Below are positions 34,307 to 42,353 of a stretch of DNA of 64,000 nucleotides, piece by piece. Numbering within the stretch: the first letter of the stretch is position 1; each line of letters starts with the position of its first letter. Source of the stretch: Thermoproteota archaeon (GTDB taxonomy: Archaea > Korarchaeota > Korarchaeia > Korarchaeales > JAOZGB01); contig JAVCBU010000012.1 in assembly GCA_037917685.1 (NCBI GenBank), forward strand, positions 320,001 through 384,000, in the 5' to 3' direction. The notes below the pieces were generated by a model. That model made no database searches and was not told the DNA's origin. It saw only the letters and a list, made by a program, of their open reading frames with translations. The position numbers were made by a program, and so were the translations under genes.

Positions 34307-35656
34307 CTACCCATATGCTACAAGTTCTACTTCGTCGATGCTTACCCTTCTATTATTATCTCTATCAAACCATCTAACGACAATAATATTTTTCCCTTGA
34401 AGATCATCCCAATATTCTATCAGAAACTTCGTGATGGCCTCAGTTCCATACCGTGTGCATCCCATCAGCATTAGTACGGATCGTCTACCCCAGTTATCAT
34501 AGGCTATTGTTGCAACACCATAATCCCCTTCGGCCCAGTTTGAGGAATTGAATGTGAATGTTTCATTTTCTACTTCAACCCATGATCCTGAACGGTTGAC
34601 GTGTATTAAGCCATAAATTCTAAGCTCTATCTTACCGTCTGATTTATCGAAATCTACAGGTGCTCTTTCTATAAATTGCCTGGATGCTGGATTTGATAAT
34701 GGGCCTCCAATGGCTACGAGGTCGTGTACCCCAGGGTAGGTCCCTACGTATACTCTGCCCTTAAAGTTAAATTTAGCTTGAAAGGTATTAGCCAGCTTTT
34801 CTTCAACACCAGTCGTGCTAATTGAGGCCTCTCTGTGGAACTTTAGGAATCTATACACCGTTTTAACCTCAGCTTCCCCGCAAAGGGAGCATGCCGACTG
34901 TATAACGTATCCGTTTTCGTCATATACTGCTGCAACTGCCCTTAAATTTGAAGGATTTGAATCCTGGGATATTTGCCAGGATCCGTGTAAAATAACTCCG
35001 TTACCTGTTAGAACTGGGATATGCTCCTCTAACGCGAGACCTCGAAATATGGAATCGAAGGTTTTAGTCTCTCTTAGTACATACACATAGTCTTCCACGT
35101 TATCTTCAACTATATATACCACAGCTTGTAGATTATAGATCGCACTGGACTGGTCAAGATCTACATACAAGGTTACGTCCACTTTACCACTCTTAACTTC
35201 AAAGTTTAATCTTAGTCTTACCTTAGGAACCTCTCTTTGCATCGATTTCCAAAGCAGGTATTGGTATTCATCTTTAATATTCTCAGAAGAACCGTCTTTC
35301 CTCTCGTATCCCCCATCAAATAAGACTATCGGGGCTGAAACATCTGAATATCCGCCTATGGCCTTTGCTTTGTTAACTCCATATTCTGTCTCAAGCGAAT
35401 CCTTAATTTCCTCTGAAGTTGAGACCCTATATATTACTAAGTGCCATTCGTGATACTCGTTTTCGCTCCAAAGTTCTTGGATAGCTGGATCACACGAGTT
35501 CATACAATGAGGGCAAGTCTCACTGGTAAACACTTCAACAAGCACGGAATGCGTGGGTTCACCGCCCTCTACACTATAGGAAAACAGAGCTAGAGAAAGG
35601 GTTAAGAGTACTAAAGTTAGCTGTATCGTTAATATTGGATACGGACTTTTATCCAT
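34307..35656 (-). CDS. Secreted thioredoxin-like (CxxC; Omp28-like) protein with C-terminal S-layer-like domain
   Basis: Signal peptide; VLVEVFTSETCPHC; C-terminal AIGGPLSN...DYG...MGCTRYGTEA...WFDRDNN. Confidence 0.65.
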   Translation of the reverse strand: MDKSPYPILTIQLTLVLLTLSLALFSYSVEGGEPTHSVLVEVFTSETCPHCMNSCDPAIQELWSENEYHEWHLVIYRVSTSEEIKDSLETEYGVNKAKAIGGYSDVSAPIVLFDGGYERKDGSSENIKDEYQYLLWKSMQREVPKVRLRLNFEVKSGKVDVTLYVDLDQSSAIYNLQAVVYIVEDNVEDYVYVLRETKTFDSIFRGLALEEHIPVLTGNGVILHGSWQISQDSNPSNLRAVAAVYDENGYVIQSACSLCGEAEVKTVYRFLKFHREASISTTGVEEKLANTFQAKFNFKGRVYVGTYPGVHDLVAIGGPLSNPASRQFIERAPVDFDKSDGKIELRIYGLIHVNRSGSWVEVENETFTFNSSNWAEGDYGVATIAYDNWGRRSVLMLMGCTRYGTEAITKFLIEYWDDLQGKNIIVVRWFDRDNNRRVSIDEVELVAYG

Positions 35657-35713: not shown

Positions 35714-36157
35714 TTAGATTCCCCTCTTCTTTGCATCTTCAATGGCAAACCTGCGGTATTCTTCAGGACTCATTAATTCTTTAGTCTCTTGATCTATATT
35801 ACTTGGTTCCAGTACTGCTATCCACCCCTTACCGTATGGATCAGAGTTCAACAATCCGGGATTATCTTCCAAGTCCGTATTTACTTCAATAACTTTACCT
35901 GAAATGGGACATTTAAGTTCTCCCGACCATTTTCCGCTTTCTATAAGGCTTAGGGGGTCTCCTTTGGAGAGCTCATCTCCTTCCATGGGTAGCTCGACAT
36001 ACACTATTTTCTTTGCAAGGTACTGGCCGTAATCTGTAAGCCCTACTCTAGCTTTCCCGTCTTCTATCTTTACCCACATGTTATCTTTGCTATAATATAG
36101 CCCCTCAGGGGTTTTAAACCTGGTTTCCGACATTTCACCTTCCACCTTGCTTATCAA
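35714..36157 (-). CDS. gcvH: Glycine cleavage H-like lipoyl-carrier protein
   Basis: YSKDNMWV, VGLTDYGQ, IESGK (lipoyl Lys), PISG, NSDPYGKGWI. Confidence 0.88.
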   Translation of the reverse strand: MISKVEGEMSETRFKTPEGLYYSKDNMWVKIEDGKARVGLTDYGQYLAKKIVYVELPMEGDELSKGDPLSLIESGKWSGELKCPISGKVIEVNTDLEDNPGLLNSDPYGKGWIAVLEPSNIDQETKELMSPEEYRRFAIEDAKKRGI

Positions 36158-36186: not shown

Positions 36187-37851
36187 CTACACTGCTATTG
36201 CGATGATTTGAGAGGAGGAATGTCGGAACTCGCAGGGAGGTAACAGGATTTTTGCTTTAAATATGAAATGGTCATTTTTATCCACGACCGCCGCTATTTG
36301 TCCGGATCTTAGATCCGGATCGTAGTCTTCGACCTGGTTTCCCAAAACTATTCGATCCCTTGGGAGAGTATTCACTATTAATCTGCCAAGTGGGGGCTTA
36401 TTTGTGGATATTAAAATTCTAAATCCTTCATCAGTAAGTATAGGTAGGCCATCAGAGTCTATATACCCTATTTCCCTGTTTTTGAGGATAAATATTATTT
36501 TATTCTCGTGTTTCTTGGTTTTTAAGCCTGCTATGTCTATATTGTAATAGTATTTTAACAGTTGCCTCGCTGTTTCCAGCGGGGTTAGTTCATCTTGAAT
36601 TTTAGATTTTTTAAGCTGTTTGAGTGGATACGTTTGGAGGAGGCCGGCAGGTATCACCCCTAGCCCCTTGACGTAAACATGTTTGCCGGGATACCTTCTT
36701 GGCATTCTAAGTCTTATCCTCGCTATTTCCGGCCTGAGCCAGAACTCTACTCCAGCGTATCTTGGGGGGTTATCTTTAATTATTGGCTCGTATTTCTCAA
36801 TCCATCTAGAATGTTTCCTTAATAGGAGAATTAATGCTTCTAAAAATCGCGGGTGCGATCTAGCTCTTAATTGAACGAGATTTAAGAGCTCCTGGTTTTT
36901 TATGGCAGTCTTTACAATTTTCAACTCTTCAAAAGTTACGAAAAGATTGTGTCTTGCTAGTAACTCCATTCTCTCTTTCTTGTCCATCTCTAAAAGTTCC
37001 TGAGGTGTGTATTTTACACAAACTGGGCAACTGCAAGGAAATTCTTCTATTTCCATTAATTTTAGTGTGCCGAAGGCTGTTAAGTATCTGTCTTGCCTTG
37101 CTGCGATACTGTACATAGCTGAATCAAATAGGTCGCAACCTAAAAATGCTAGCAATGAGAATATCATAGGATGGCCTGCGCCAAAAGCATGTATAATTTT
37201 GTCTGGAATAGTCTTTTTGATAGCTATTATTATGTCGCATATTTCTTTATAGTTGTAACTCATAAGGTAGGGGGCTAGGCCTCCGATAGCATATATATTT
37301 CCCACGTTTCTGAGGGCTATGGCGGATTTTACTCTCAGATCAATATGGGTCCCTCCTTGTAATGGAATAAGGTATTCTCTCCCGCTTGGGATTATTCTTT
37401 TTGAACTTATAACTCTACGTATTGTTTCGTCGACTTTACTCTCTGCTTCTTCTCTACTGTCTTTGGGTAGTACAAAATAGTCTAAAGGAGTAATTATGTC
37501 TGATCCTATCTCTACTTGGAATTTAACGATTGTTTCTGGATCTACACCCTTTATTCCCCTAGAGTACATTTGGTACGCTCCTGAATCGGTCATTATGATC
37601 CCATGAAAGTTCAACATTCTATGGAGCTTCTCTTCCTTAGCTTTTTCCCTCAGAGAAGGAGTATTACCAATTATGTAGGCGTTTGTTATCAGTATTTCTG
37701 CTTTAAACTGGTTTCCAAGCTCTACTGGGCTAATAATCAGCTTATTAGGATTTACGACTATAGCTATGTTTGGCGTTTCAACCTTTTTCCCCGCAACGTT
37801 TAGAACAGAGATTTTCGCAAGTCCATCTCTATATTTTATCTCCCTCTCCAA
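36187..37851 (-). CDS. tgtA: Archaeosine tRNA-guanine(15) transglycosylase
   Basis: ETP...ITNAYII, MTDSGAYQ, QGG, HAFGAGHP, DLFDSAMY, CSCPVC...RHNL Zn site; C-terminal PUA-like region. Confidence 0.92.
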   Translation of the reverse strand: MEREIKYRDGLAKISVLNVAGKKVETPNIAIVVNPNKLIISPVELGNQFKAEILITNAYIIGNTPSLREKAKEEKLHRMLNFHGIIMTDSGAYQMYSRGIKGVDPETIVKFQVEIGSDIITPLDYFVLPKDSREEAESKVDETIRRVISSKRIIPSGREYLIPLQGGTHIDLRVKSAIALRNVGNIYAIGGLAPYLMSYNYKEICDIIIAIKKTIPDKIIHAFGAGHPMIFSLLAFLGCDLFDSAMYSIAARQDRYLTAFGTLKLMEIEEFPCSCPVCVKYTPQELLEMDKKERMELLARHNLFVTFEELKIVKTAIKNQELLNLVQLRARSHPRFLEALILLLRKHSRWIEKYEPIIKDNPPRYAGVEFWLRPEIARIRLRMPRRYPGKHVYVKGLGVIPAGLLQTYPLKQLKKSKIQDELTPLETARQLLKYYYNIDIAGLKTKKHENKIIFILKNREIGYIDSDGLPILTDEGFRILISTNKPPLGRLIVNTLPRDRIVLGNQVEDYDPDLRSGQIAAVVDKNDHFIFKAKILLPPCEFRHSSSQIIAIAV

Positions 37852-39175
37852 TTAACTCCCTCTTTAAGATGGTCTTTAGCCTTTCCACTGCTAGAGGATG
37901 GGCAACTGCTGGTTTAAAACTTTCTTCAACTATCTTACTATAAGTTTTATCGTCGATAACTTCAATTAGTTTTAGCTGTGTTCTTTCGAATGCTATTCTT
38001 ATAGCTTTGATTGTTTCTGAATCAGGCCTAAAATATGCTATATACTTTTTGTAATGGTCTGAGTGAGCTCTAAGATATTTTTCCACCCTTACACTGGTTA
38101 TCTCTATGTATTGCTTTTTTATCTCTTGAGTTTCCCTCCATTCCTCCCAGTCGTAGTGGGAGAATGGATAATATCTTATGTACTCGTATGGAATTACACC
38201 TGGGGAACTCACAGCTACGATATGTATCTTTCTGAAAAAGGGAAAACCAGATATTCCTGATAGTATGGCCTTCCACGTCTTAGACTTTGTGTAGGGTTTT
38301 TTATACGCGCATGGTAGGAAAAGGAGGTATATCTTTCCTTTAGGTGGACTATAAAATCTTAGAAAGTAGTCTTGCCACACTTCATAGTAGGGATGCCTTA
38401 GATACTCTATGCCTACACCTTTGAGTTTTACTCTTTTCTCTGGTGGGAATCTAGGTACAAAAGCAAAATTGTTAAAGTCAAGTTCCACCTTAGGGTTGCT
38501 TCTCCACTTACCTACTAGTTTTTCGAACTGTTCCTTATCTAGCGGCCTCCATGCTCCTCTGATATAATCATTCCAGAGCTCTGAATCTACGTGGGGGTAA
38601 GTGTTTATGATTACAATGCTGTCGGAGTATTTTAATGCTAGTTCAACGGTCCTATGGAGTATCCCTTGTTGTAAATTAATGTCCTTAAATATTGGGTGAG
38701 GGTTAACAAGGATGTATGTTCTTACCCCTAATCCCTTTTCTCTCAGTTTTACGGCTGCTCTTATGTATTCTTCCACTGTTTGACCCTTTTTTAGTAGTTC
38801 AAGAATCTTATTATCTGCGACTTCGAGGCCCATTGCAATGGTGACCTTTAATCCGTCTACTATTAAGTCGTCAAGGCTGTTTTGAAGAACGTGTCCTACC
38901 CTTGACTCAATTACGACCTCTTTAACTCCAGCATCTCTTATTATCTGAAGCATTTCCTTTAGAATCCATCTGGGGAACTGTCTTTTGTCAAGTAGGCTAC
39001 CAGATGAGAATATCTTTAGTTTTTCGACTCCTTTATTTTTATCAAGAAATCTTCGGAGTTTATCTATCAGTTCCTTGGGGGTGACATTTACTTCTCTCTT
39101 CCCCCAACCACAAAAATAGCATTTCCCCCAGCTACACCTGCCACTTTCAAGAATTATGGAAGCTTCATTACTCAA
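37829..39175 (-). CDS. Fusion of RaSEA-type radical SAM domain and ArcS-type (DUF5591-like) domain
   Basis: N-half: CSWGKCYFC, KIFSSGSLLD, VIESR, MGLEVA, TYILVNP. C-half: YSPP...LFLPCAYKKPYTKSKT...SSPGVIP.E....YP..HYD. Overlaps tgtA by 23 bp. Confidence 0.82.
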   Translation of the reverse strand: MSNEASIILESGRCSWGKCYFCGWGKREVNVTPKELIDKLRRFLDKNKGVEKLKIFSSGSLLDKRQFPRWILKEMLQIIRDAGVKEVVIESRVGHVLQNSLDDLIVDGLKVTIAMGLEVADNKILELLKKGQTVEEYIRAAVKLREKGLGVRTYILVNPHPIFKDINLQQGILHRTVELALKYSDSIVIINTYPHVDSELWNDYIRGAWRPLDKEQFEKLVGKWRSNPKVELDFNNFAFVPRFPPEKRVKLKGVGIEYLRHPYYEVWQDYFLRFYSPPKGKIYLLFLPCAYKKPYTKSKTWKAILSGISGFPFFRKIHIVAVSSPGVIPYEYIRYYPFSHYDWEEWRETQEIKKQYIEITSVRVEKYLRAHSDHYKKYIAYFRPDSETIKAIRIAFERTQLKLIEVIDDKTYSKIVEESFKPAVAHPLAVERLKTILKRELIGEGDKI

Positions 39176-39763
39176 CTAGACACCTATAAGCCCATTTACC
39201 TTTAACCATGTGCTTGCGCCTTTTAAAATGAGCTCTATTGCTATGGCTGCTAGCAGAAGCCCCATAACTTTCACTATTATTCTGACACCACGCTTACCTA
39301 TTTTGCTGAGTATTTTAGGAGACAATCTCAATATTACATATGAGAGGGACATGCTTATTGCTAGGGCGATTATTACGGTTGTGTGATTGTAGCTTCTCAT
39401 AAGAATGATCGATAATGTTATAGCTCCTGGACCTGCTAGAAGTGGGGTTCCGATAGGCACAGCTGCAAATTCGTCAAGTGAAATCTTAGGCTCCACGTAT
39501 TTGATGAACTCGAGTGCTAAGGATAGAAGCATTATTCCACCGGCGATCATAAAGCTGCAAAGTGAGATGTCAAGAGCCCTGAGCAATATATCTCCAAGGA
39601 TTGTGAAAAATAGTAGAAGACTGAAGGCTACGATAACTGCGTCTCTGGCCACTTGATTAACCTTTCTTCTATCAACCATGGAGAATATTGGCACAACGTT
39701 AAATGGATCTATTATAAGGAAGAGTTGTATGAACACTTTCAAGATTTCAGTCATCATCACCAC
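39176..39763 (-). CDS. MarC family membrane protein
   Basis: IIDPF.VVP.F, IAGGIML, VPIGTPLLAGPGAIT, MGLLLAAIA. Confidence 0.93.
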   Translation of the reverse strand: MVMMTEILKVFIQLFLIIDPFNVVPIFSMVDRRKVNQVARDAVIVAFSLLLFFTILGDILLRALDISLCSFMIAGGIMLLSLALEFIKYVEPKISLDEFAAVPIGTPLLAGPGAITLSIILMRSYNHTTVIIALAISMSLSYVILRLSPKILSKIGKRGVRIIVKVMGLLLAAIAIELILKGASTWLKVNGLIGV

Positions 39764-40289: not shown

Positions 40290-42353
40290 ATGAGAGATCA
40301 TGTGCTTATAATCGCTGAAAAGGAAAAACAAGCGGAGCAGATAGCTGGTATACTGTCGAATGGGAAGTATGAGCGCAAGAACATCGGAAGAGTTCGATAT
40401 TACGTATTTAAACGTGATGGGGTAAACATTACGGTTGTACCAGCCAGAGGCCATATATACCAGTTGGAAACAAGAGACAAAGGCTATCCTACGTTTAACG
40501 TTGAATGGGCTCCCACGAGGGGTGTGAGAGGGATCAAATCATATATTAAGGCTATAAAAGGGCTTTACAATGGCGGAAGGATCGTATTAGCTACGGATTA
40601 CGACATGGAGGGGGAGGTTATCGGTGGTAACATTATAGAATTCACACTTGGAATTAGAAACGTCGATAGCATTGATAGGATGATTTTCTCTAGCCTTACA
40701 AGAGAAGAAATTACAAGGGCGTGGGAAAACCCTTCTAAAGTTGATGTAAAGCTTCTGGAGGCTGGCAGGGCAAGGCATGAGATGGATTTCATGTGGGGGG
40801 TGACATTTTCGAGAGCTTTAATGGAAGCTGTTAGGATAGCGGGAGGTCTCAGGAGGCATCCGCTCAGTGTCGGGAGGGTTCAAACCCCAATGCTTGCTGC
40901 AGTAGTCGAATTAGAGAGGAAAATACAGAATTTCAAGCCGGAACCCTACTGGGAGTTGGTGGCTAAGGTTTTGATTAATGGGAAGTGGTACACAGCGCAG
41001 TATGTTGGAAATCCGATTAAAAACAAGGAGGAAGCCGAGAGATTACTAGAAAAGGCAAAGGGAGGGAAAGCAATCGTTAAAGATGTTAAAACTAGTAAGA
41101 GTGTCAGGAAGCCTCCTGTTCCCTTTGACACTACAGAGTTGCAGAAAGAGGCGTCAAGATGGTTTGGCCTATCACCACAACAAACCATTAATCAAGCTGA
41201 AGGTATTTATCTAGAGGGCGCCATCTCATATATTAGAACGGATAGCCAGGTCTATCCTAAGGATTTAGACCATAAAAGCTTGCTATCTAAACTGTCGGGT
41301 ATATCTAAGGAATACAGAGAATTCGCAGAAGACCTACTGTCTAAGGGGAAGCTCAAACCTTCTTCTGGAAAGAAGGGCGGTAAGGAGTCTGCCCACCCAG
41401 CTATACACCCCACCGGGAAGAAACCCAGACAACTTAATAAGAGGCAATGGAAGCTCTACGATCTCATCTGCAGGAGATATTTCGCCACGCTTGGGGACAA
41501 TATGGTTAGGGAAACAAAGAGAATAACGATAGATATAAATGGTTTGACATTTAAACTCTCGGGAACAAGAACTGTGGATATAGGGTGGGGGAGATACTAC
41601 AAGCCATACCTGGATTTACAGGAGATAGACTTTGGCCCTGTAAAAGCTGGCGACGAACTTAGATTTAATGTAGACTTGGTAAAGAAGATGACTAAACCCC
41701 CACCGAGGATGACACCGATGAAACTTGTACTTTGGGCTGAGAAGAATGGTATAGGAACTAAGGCCACCAGGGGAGAGATGATTAAAAAACTGCTTGACAG
41801 GAGATATCTTGAAGTTGAAAAAAGAGCTTTGAAGCCCACAAAGCTAGGCTTCTGCGTAGCGGAGGTCATAGAGGAGAGGATACCTATCCTACTAAGCGTA
41901 GAAATGACTAGAAAGTTCGAGGAACAACTATTCCTTGTTAAAAATGGTAGGATAACGAGAGAAGAGCTTTTGGAAGACGTTAAAGAAGAGATATTAAAAC
42001 TTACTGAGGAATTTAACGAGCATATAGAGAGAATAGGCAAGGACCTGCGCAGAAAATTATCGGAAACTATAGAAAACACAATAGGTGTATGTTCAAAGTG
42101 CGGTAAGCCTTTAAAGCTGATAAGGAGAAGCGACGGAAAACGTTTTATATGGTGCACTACTCTAAATTGCACATATTACCCACTCCCACAGAAGGGTAAG
42201 CTGACAATAATAAACAGCAGAAGGTGTATAAAGTGCGGTCTGAAACCTATAAAGGTATCTCAAAGGGGGAAAAGATCATGGGAGCTCTGCGTAGCCTGCG
42301 GGATCTGCTTCAAGTGTGAGCTTTTCAAAGAATGTATACAACAATCCCGGTAG
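40290..42353 (+). CDS. topA: Type IA DNA topoisomerase (archaeal TopA/TopoIII)
   Basis: IIAEK, RGH, ATDYDMEGE, SVGRVQTP, ISYIRTD (catalytic Tyr), AHPAIHPT, GIGTKATR; C-terminal Zn ribbons. Confidence 0.95.
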   Translation: MRDHVLIIAEKEKQAEQIAGILSNGKYERKNIGRVRYYVFKRDGVNITVVPARGHIYQLETRDKGYPTFNVEWAPTRGVRGIKSYIKAIKGLYNGGRIVLATDYDMEGEVIGGNIIEFTLGIRNVDSIDRMIFSSLTREEITRAWENPSKVDVKLLEAGRARHEMDFMWGVTFSRALMEAVRIAGGLRRHPLSVGRVQTPMLAAVVELERKIQNFKPEPYWELVAKVLINGKWYTAQYVGNPIKNKEEAERLLEKAKGGKAIVKDVKTSKSVRKPPVPFDTTELQKEASRWFGLSPQQTINQAEGIYLEGAISYIRTDSQVYPKDLDHKSLLSKLSGISKEYREFAEDLLSKGKLKPSSGKKGGKESAHPAIHPTGKKPRQLNKRQWKLYDLICRRYFATLGDNMVRETKRITIDINGLTFKLSGTRTVDIGWGRYYKPYLDLQEIDFGPVKAGDELRFNVDLVKKMTKPPPRMTPMKLVLWAEKNGIGTKATRGEMIKKLLDRRYLEVEKRALKPTKLGFCVAEVIEERIPILLSVEMTRKFEEQLFLVKNGRITREELLEDVKEEILKLTEEFNEHIERIGKDLRRKLSETIENTIGVCSKCGKPLKLIRRSDGKRFIWCTTLNCTYYPLPQKGKLTIINSRRCIKCGLKPIKVSQRGKRSWELCVACGICFKCELFKECIQQSR

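Follow-up and report, generated by a model that had tools for sequence, protein, structure and literature searches.

A fused RaSEA and ArcS-core protein encoded beside tgtA in a korarchaeal genome, probably a single-chain archaeosine synthase

The last steps in the making of archaeosine (G+) at position 15 of tRNA are, in archaea that have been studied, the work of a complex of two proteins. In the euryarchaeon Thermococcus kodakarensis, ArcS and the radical S-adenosylmethionine (SAM) protein RaSEA act after the archaeal tRNA-guanine transglycosylase (ArcTGT, the product of tgtA), and the association of their two activities is obligatory: ArcS by itself shows no activity, and the transfer of lysine takes the ArcS–RaSEA complex (PMC11298593). 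ArcTGT does not co-purify with that complex, and ArcS accepts a 5′-P-preQ0 nucleoside, neither the L-shape nor the sequence of the tRNA being essential (PMC11298593). Our subject is a gene that likewise joins the two activities, this time in one polypeptide. It lies at 37829..39175 on the minus strand of a 64,000-nucleotide stretch of korarchaeal DNA (positions 320,001 to 384,000 of contig JAVCBU010000012.1, assembly GCA_037917685.1), which in its entirety we call the window. The gene encodes 448 residues, in which a RaSEA-type radical-SAM domain is followed by the C1 core of ArcS (the Pfam family DUF5591), and it runs directly into tgtA. That the product is a single-chain enzyme, RaSEA plus ArcS core, for the last steps of archaeosine formation is well supported by its sequence, its fold, its conservation and its genome context.

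Placed beside the euryarchaeal pair, the fusion has the same ingredients, a DUF5591/C1 domain with the motif PC-X3-KPY-X2-S and a RaSEA-type radical-SAM domain, and the same place in the pathway. What differs is the build. The euryarchaeal enzyme consists of two proteins, one of ~575 residues (the length of the ArcS profile NF040592) and the other of ~300 to 340, whereas the fusion is one chain of 448. It has no TGT-like N-terminal domain, no C2 and no PUA, its RaSEA part is shortened, and the final His of the ArcS motif is a Trp. We take the fusion to be an enzyme already known in two-subunit form, here in a different architecture that is widespread.

Other described proteins resemble parts of it. 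AF0587 of Archaeoglobus fulgidus (Protein Data Bank [PDB] code: 2q07; annotated as of unknown function) has the fold of the C-half, and its PC..KPY segment aligns with that of the fusion; it matches the C-half alone and has nothing that corresponds to the radical-SAM domain at the N terminus. We take AF0587 to be the C1-C2-PUA piece of a split ArcS. The queuine lyase QueL (PDB code: 6p78) is a compact radical-SAM enzyme that works on the side chain of a 7-deazaguanine and is the closest structure to the N-half; the sequence family of that half, in contrast, is RaSEA and not QueL. QueL is a bacterial salvage enzyme whose substrate is free queuine, and it is not known to carry a fused ArcS domain. 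The viral ArcS2 proteins of Vibrio phage nt-1 and Sulfolobus virus STSV-2 consist of the C1 core alone, with a motif that is partly degenerate. They pair with DpdA, act on DNA and have no fused radical-SAM domain, whereas the partner in the window is a TgtA of the tRNA type (bioRxiv 10.1101/2023.04.13.536721). Most Crenarchaeota are described as lacking arcS (PMC11298593; PMC5485725). Their QueF-like and Gat-QueC enzymes carry out the same step, from preQ0 to G+ (PMC5485725), with unrelated folds and by ammonia or glutamine chemistry, and neither was detected in the genome to which the window belongs.

We put at roughly 75% the probability that the fusion is a one-chain archaeosine synthase, finishing G+15 in tRNA after TgtA has done its part. 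The starting points are observations: the identities of the domains, the conservation of catalytic residues, the fold matches, the finding of no alternative enzymes and the linkage to tgtA. The chemistry, the use of lysine and the choice of tRNA as substrate would carry over by homology. TgtA would swap G15 for preQ0, itself probably imported. The C-half, through Cys289 and Lys293-Pro-Tyr, would then add the ε-amino group of lysine to the nitrile of preQ0 to give preQ0-Lys, and the N-half, with a cluster held on Cys14, Cys19 and Cys22, would use SAM to cleave the lysine C–N bond and leave the formamidine of archaeosine. The division of labor would be that of a scheme reportedly set out by Yokogawa in 2019, with the α subunit as lysine transferase and β as lyase. 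What the fusion would add is permanence to the ArcS–RaSEA association. That two cores should be fused without RNA-binding domains is plausible because ArcS depends on RaSEA and because of the ArcTGT and 5′-P-preQ0 findings (PMC11298593). The first-pass annotation of this DNA had suggested that the tRNA is held for the fusion by the co-translated TgtA, a possible arrangement but an unnecessary one, since ArcTGT does not co-purify with the complex and ArcS works on a preQ0 nucleotide (PMC11298593). A predicted complex of TgtA (554 residues) with the fusion (residues 1–440) scored 0.00, which has no bearing for or against binding.

The N-half (residues 1–240; 38456..39175, minus strand) would house the radical-SAM chemistry. 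Pfam places Radical_SAM on residues 13–157 (E 3.3e-10; 40.8 bits, cut-off 29.5). The top NCBIfam family over this half is RaSEA itself, TIGR01210, with 96.1 bits and E 2.3e-27 across residues 5–163; the second-ranked radical-SAM family reaches ~27 bits. The presumed ligands of the [4Fe-4S]/SAM cluster, C14-X4-C19-X2-C22, are encoded at 39110..39136 (minus strand) and read CSWGKCYFC. A filter-free phmmer search with residues 1–245 against 1.84 billion representative proteins returned 447 matches at E ≤ 1e-3, among them 86 that reach 1e-10 and 17 that reach 1e-30. The top ~24 are mostly full-length proteins of the fusion type, plus fragments. Below this tier come proteins of ~300 to 360 residues, and all four that we scanned (P0145, P0146, P0148 and P0151; 300 to 340 residues) are canonical RaSEAs, scoring 309 to 358 bits on TIGR01210 (cut-off 212). 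Because the next-tier matches scanned are canonical RaSEAs, it is RaSEA that lies closest to the N-half outside the fusion type. The assignment made in the first pass from motifs alone, that this half is of the RaSEA type, therefore has both the best-scoring family and the nearest non-fusion relatives behind it.

Covalently joined to this domain is the C-half (residues 245–448; 37832..38443, minus strand). DUF5591 (PF17884) matches residues 267–407 with E 1e-13 (51.9 bits, cut-off 26), and the NCBIfam families that rank first here are two ArcS-α models, NF053620 at 50.7 bits and NF040592 at 47.4 bits. Of the 575 positions of NF040592, the C-half matches only ~261 to 412. A Pfam scan of the whole fusion protein gave two domains only, with no TGT, TGT_C2 or PUA. 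The signature P288-C289-X3-K293-P294-Y295-X2-S298-X2-W301 is encoded at 38273..38314 (minus strand); the published ArcS motif is PC-X3-KPY-X2-S-X2-H (bioRxiv 10.1101/2023.04.13.536721). The identification of the C-half as an ArcS/DUF5591 domain, also an early claim, stands on the Pfam and NCBIfam results and on the match to the 2q07 fold described next. The larger claim, that both late-step catalytic modules share one chain, is upheld by Pfam, NCBIfam, profile and fold alike, and its second part, that the chain lacks the TGT-like N-domain, C2 and PUA of ArcS, by Pfam. Every motif quoted in support of the claim is in the translation: CSWGKCYFC, KIFSSGSLLD, VIESR, MGLEVA, PCAYKKPYTKSKT, SSPGVIPYE and YPFSHYD.

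Structure prediction gives the same division into halves. The AlphaFold2 model of the fusion, built with 119 sequences, is one compact two-domain structure with a mean predicted local distance difference test score (pLDDT) of 95.7 and a predicted template modeling score of 0.91. When it was compared by VIA-align with 48,161 chains, the best solved structure for the N-half was queuine lyase (6p78_A), over residues 1–238 with Z 19.1, a root mean square deviation of 3.0 and 211 of 230 residues aligned, and residues 265–443 of the whole model matched 2q07_A at Z 15.3. The C-half folded alone (pLDDT 96.6) found a single chain with Z of 8 or more, again 2q07_A (AF0587), at Z 15.4 with a deviation of 2.4, 138 residues aligned and 21% identity; the runner-up reached Z 6.9. 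A profile made from 34 family members and run against the PDB picked out AF0587/2q07 for the C-half (E 8.5e-14), and queuine lyase 6p78 (E 1.6e-13) and Elp3 (E 6e-13) for the N-half. Among the matches listed, Foldseek with the whole model against the PDB gave radical-SAM proteins only, so the structural match of the C-half comes via VIA-align.

Conservation was read from an alignment of 119 members of the fusion family. The three cluster cysteines (C14, C19 and C22) are present in 119/119 rows, as are S58-G59-S60, E90, G116-L117-E118 and K130. In the C-half, C289, K293, P294, Y295 and S298 are equally invariant, and P288 is present in the window protein. Position 301 is the one at which the family divides: His in 85 of the 119 rows, Trp in 32 (the window protein included), and Tyr and Phe in one each.

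Several findings weigh against the one-chain archaeosine synthase. The N-half, at 96.1 bits, is under the curated equivalog cut-off of TIGR01210 (212.15) and spans profile positions 16–183 of 313; we regard it as a RaSEA-like core in shortened form. The C-half falls well short of the equivalog cut-offs for ArcS, with 47.4 versus 440 bits on NF040592 and 50.7 versus 600 on NF053620, scores that are low because it is one domain out of ArcS's four. The terminal His of the published motif is Trp301 in the window protein. Across the 43 genomes of the GTDB phylum that we compared, 38 of the 40 that carry TgtA have neither the fusion nor any other G+ enzyme that we searched for; evidently TgtA can persist without one, and G+ may not be obligatory. 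Finally, the C1-only ArcS2 of Vibrio phage nt-1 makes 2′-deoxyarchaeosine (dG+) with no RaSEA encoded alongside (bioRxiv 10.1101/2023.04.13.536721), and the ArcS of Methanocaldococcus jannaschii uses NH4+, Asn or Gln (PMC11298593), so the lysine route is not the sole chemistry open to a C1 domain.

These last two examples suggest a different way of working, in which the C-half makes archaeosine directly from preQ0-tRNA with ammonia or glutamine, no lysine adduct is formed, and the radical-SAM half is structural or serves some other chemistry. A viral ArcS2 with nothing but its C1 core, together with DpdA2 alone, was enough for dG+ to form in Escherichia coli (bioRxiv 10.1101/2023.04.13.536721). 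For the fusion we consider this unlikely: the presence in all 119 rows of the cluster cysteines, S58-G59-S60, E90 and G116-L117-E118 argues for a working radical-SAM enzyme, and the nearest outgroup of the N-half is a genuine RaSEA. Position 301 bears on another alternative, that the fusion, at least in the clade with Trp at this position, yields a 7-deazaguanine product other than G+, through another amine donor or another radical cleavage. The change from His to Trp would fit such a product, as would the shortened RaSEA core and the closeness of the N-half to queuine lyase, an enzyme with a different C–N cleavage on 7-deazaguanine. Yet the His301 and Trp301 forms are one alignable family, 41 to 61% identical, with the same invariant residues, and no other candidate G+ enzyme turned up in the 30 fusion-bearing genomes chosen for comparison. 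A different product is, to our minds, distinctly unlikely.

If the one-chain synthase is to account for G+ in this organism, the rest of the genome should be considered. The assembly (1.81 Mb in 22 contigs, 95% complete) has a single DUF5591 match, the fusion gene, and profile searches found no canonical ArcS or RaSEA besides it. The one other TIGR01210 match was rejected as a RaSEA; the Elp3 model gives it 675 bits, and it is an Elp3. Two QueC-like matches were also rejected, being ThiI and NadE (NAD synthase), and with no QueC there is therefore no Gat-QueC. The QueF models (PF14489 and TIGR03139) matched nothing in the genome; they matched no archaeal control genome either, so their sensitivity for archaeal QueF-like proteins is unproven. 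With that reservation about QueF, the genome carries no separate arcS, raSEA, queF-like or Gat-QueC gene that we could find, as the first-pass annotation required for its proposal of a minimal pathway.

How preQ0 is obtained is part of the same question. A profile search found no PTPS/QueD in the genome. There is a Vut_1 (YhhQ-type) membrane protein, at 115.8 bits (L006:2366-3088 (+), contig 1, 9779-10243 region), with no NCBIfam match. The Vut_1/YhhQ family, we assume, imports preQ0 and preQ1, and this protein is a candidate preQ0 importer. Because the genome is without QueC and QueD but has such a transporter, the organism probably scavenges preQ0, and G+ formation in the window's lineage would run on the scavenged base. 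The proposal of a minimal pathway is weakened by this dependence on scavenged preQ0, and by the relic of a PUA-bearing TgtA elsewhere in the genome, to which we return.

Scavenging also invites the thought that the fusion acts on the free base or nucleotide in 7-deazaguanine salvage and not on tRNA. The genome and the whole phylum lack QueC (over cut-off in 0/43 genomes), the Vut_1 transporter is there, Pfam finds no RNA-binding domain in the fusion protein, and a preQ0 nucleotide serves ArcS as a substrate in vitro (PMC11298593). Against this, canonical arcTGT is described as not using the G+ base (PMC5485725), which leaves free G+ without a known route into tRNA, and tgtA is linked to the fusion repeatedly, in at least 24 of 80 loci. 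We think salvage very unlikely and a tRNA-directed synthase the better reading.

The tgtA of the window (36187..37851, minus strand) encodes 554 residues and starts at a TTG inside the last codons of the fusion gene, with a purine-rich GAGGGAG 4 nt upstream of it. The overlap of 23 bp (37829..37851, minus strand), and the single unbroken 448-residue open reading frame of the fusion, from TTG start to TAG stop, are just as they were first described. The TgtA scores 422 bits on TIGR00432 (cut-off 350) and finds the ArcTGT of Pyrococcus horikoshii (PDB code: 1iq8) with E 2.4e-92. It keeps the catalytic aspartates, D89 (in TDSG), D240 and D243, and the zinc site C273/C275/C278/H301, all in columns that are invariant in a 37-row alignment. 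No Pfam C2 or PUA is found in it even at E ≤ 1; residues 217–544 align weakly (28% identity) with a paralog that bears C2 and PUA. These properties matter for one more alternative, a Dpd-like system of transglycosylase and ArcS2 in which the fusion would modify DNA. C1-only ArcS2 proteins do work with DpdA on viral DNA (bioRxiv 10.1101/2023.04.13.536721). In the window, by contrast, the transglycosylase next to the fusion is a genuine TgtA and the neighbors, marC and gcvH, are housekeeping genes, and we rate DNA as the target extremely unlikely.

The fusion is neither unique to this genome nor rare. A homologue search with it gave 246 clusters at E ≤ 1e-3. Among the matches listed (120 of the 246 clusters), 119 are 400 to 490 residues long and one is a 315-residue fragment; 104 carry both PF04055 and PF17884, and 16 carry PF17884 only. 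The source names among these matches are 'DUF5591 domain-containing protein', 'radical SAM protein', 'archaeosine synthase' and 'hypothetical' only. A scan of one genome per species gave 172 pattern matches, with 150 species-level genomes encoding a relative of the fusion. Our locus comparisons use the best 80 of these 150. Within them the carriers from the Thermoproteota are Culexmicrobium, Methanomethylicia, Thermofilaceae, Thermoproteales, Desulfurococcales, Thermodiscus and the cultured Ignicoccus pacificus DSM 13166 (locus L076), and there are further carriers in one Asgard archaeon, many DPANN lineages and Altiarchaeota. We found no description of the fusion in a literature search that had the original ArcS and RaSEA papers outside it; neither the word 'fusion' nor 'fused' appears anywhere in PMC11298593.

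Thirty fusion-bearing genomes were chosen for closer comparison, the window's own and 29 reached via 29 of the 80 loci. Canonical ArcS was over its cut-off in 0/30 of them, and so was canonical RaSEA, with TIGR01210 scores of 82 to 134 bits. A TGT-type gene is present in 29, and the remaining one (G027) showed the fusion alone. At least 24 of the 80 loci have tgtA within 6 kb of the fusion, and the true number may be higher, given how many of the contigs are short. There are two arrangements. In 23 of the 24 linked loci tgtA lies upstream on the opposite strand, immediately head-to-head in eight; the overlapping, co-directional layout of the window was found again in L009 only.

Variants of the architecture exist. 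P0177 is an independent fusion whose order is reversed, with the RaSEA domain coming after DUF5591-TGT_C2-PUA, and P0137 has an insert of ~200 residues between the two halves. P0141 and P0246 carry, ahead of the RaSEA-type domain, N-terminal regions of 240 to 315 residues without a Pfam or NCBIfam match. Ten of the 30 genomes (G002, G004–G007, G009, G010, G012, G025 and G029) have stand-alone frames of 133 to 191 residues whose match to the ArcS profile is confined to its C2-PUA end, which suggests that they are split C2-PUA modules. Nine of these genomes belong to the TACK (Thaumarchaeota, Aigarchaeota, Crenarchaeota, Korarchaeota) or Asgard groups and the tenth, G029, is labeled Woesearchaeota. 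The TgtAs of the ten are 501 to 567 residues long (418 in G029).

Should the fusion be active as we propose, the lysine route of ArcS and RaSEA would reach beyond the Euryarchaeota into TACK, Asgard, DPANN and Altiarchaeota. The smallest unit capable of catalysis would then consist of the C1 core and a shortened radical-SAM core, and the TGT-like domain, C2 and PUA would all be dispensable. The fusion would also be a natural single-chain construct for the structure of the ArcS–RaSEA active site, a kind of study that is still needed according to PMC11298593.

Within its own phylum the locus is a rarity. The fusion occurs in 2/43 genomes, those of the window and of a relative in the same genus (G035), and DUF5591 in three. 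TgtA is found in 40 of the 43 and is over cut-off in 39. QueF (PF14489) was found in 0/43, by a model that matched no archaeal control genome. What the phylum inserts would seem to be a 7-deazaguanine taken up by scavenging, and most relatives of the window's organism keep TgtA with no recognizable G+ enzyme. The third DUF5591 match is a stand-alone frame of 256 residues in G066 (contigs 115–116), a genome of 2.9 Mb with 6% contamination. This frame adjoins a 357-residue TGT-like frame with one TAA, and there are radical-SAM frames of ~390 residues nearby. A Dpd-like or viral module is one possibility for this region, and contamination is another.

The TgtA of the window appears atypical for the phylum, and the genome holds a second TGT-family protein that is closer to type. 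It is a frame of 469 residues outside the window (L008:787-2196 (-), contig 6, ~334.7–336.1 kb), adjoining a gene for F420-0:gamma-glutamyl ligase. Pfam gives it a partial TGT domain, TGT_C2 and PUA, and the Cys and His of the zinc site are kept. From residue 112 to its end it aligns with residues 205–575 of a phylum-type TgtA (38% identity, 255 bits); the first 111 residues are without similarity to that protein, and the DxFDS active-site segment reads DIIATDG. Against the phylum's TgtAs as a set it shows 37 to 38% identity and 233 to 255 bits, versus 28% and 114 bits against the TgtA of the window. NCBIfam has ArcS as its best match (114.7 bits), and an 'ArcS minus C1' was considered and rejected, the protein being closest to the phylum's own TgtAs and grouping with them in the tree described below. 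We regard it as a decayed copy of a phylum-type TgtA. A word-based search gave three proteins, and because two full-length relatives exist, at 71 to 74% identity, the gene appears to be under maintenance and not dead. Its product may serve as a subunit that binds tRNA without catalytic activity.

Two quick trees were made with IQ-TREE on selected rows, with support from the Shimodaira–Hasegawa-like approximate likelihood ratio test (SH-aLRT) only and no bootstraps, and long-branch artifacts are possible in both. The TgtA tree took in ten of the 43 phylum genomes, ten TACK or Asgard carriers of the fusion, 16 loci from among the 24 in which tgtA is adjacent, and the two proteins of the window's genome. 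In it the 469-residue protein goes with the phylum's TgtAs (SH-aLRT 96; branch length 2.43), and the window's TgtA, together with that of L009, falls among mostly DPANN sequences (SH-aLRT 99), with a long branch (1.54) leading to the two. The fusion tree has the window's genome and 26 loci, its genomes being those of the TgtA tree minus the ten phylum genomes without the fusion. There the window's fusion goes with TACK and Asgard homologs (SH-aLRT 99). The two trees do not show that the fusion and tgtA moved laterally together: the fusion sides with TACK and Asgard, its tgtA with sequences mostly from DPANN. One or both genes may have been gained laterally; loss elsewhere, combined with fast evolution, is another reading.

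One tentative and rather doubtful account would tie these observations together. The genus may have rebuilt its G15 modification, with the fusion–tgtA operon, either foreign or very divergent, taking over catalysis, and the native TgtA, having lost its catalytic N-half, being kept as the 469-residue protein with zinc site, C2 and PUA, a non-catalytic subunit for binding tRNA. The relic may partner TgtA, as an archaeal analogue of the eukaryotic QTRT2. Alternatively it may partner the fusion, recreating in trans the scaffold of N-terminal domain, C2 and PUA that canonical ArcS has in cis.

There remain the neighbors. In the window marC, the fusion gene and tgtA form a co-directional array of abutting or overlapping genes. 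Among the sequencing runs listed for this operon are two of DNA, perhaps the source samples, and none of RNA. The marC-family membrane protein gene (39176..39763, minus strand; Pfam MarC, 128.8 bits) ends in a TAG that immediately precedes the TTG start of the fusion. On the other side, 29 nt downstream of tgtA and on the same strand, is gcvH (35714..36157; Pfam GCV_H, 137.8 bits), the gene for the glycine cleavage H protein, probably a mere neighbor of the fusion–tgtA pair. The order marC, fusion, tgtA, gcvH recurs in L009, the nearest relative (83% identity) and the only close one with flanks. Beyond gcvH, at 34307-35656 (-), is a 449-residue frame with a hydrophobic N terminus and a CPHC motif. 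Divergent from the array, at 40290-42353 (+), is a frame of 687 residues with a Cys-rich C terminus that looks by eye like a type IA topoisomerase.

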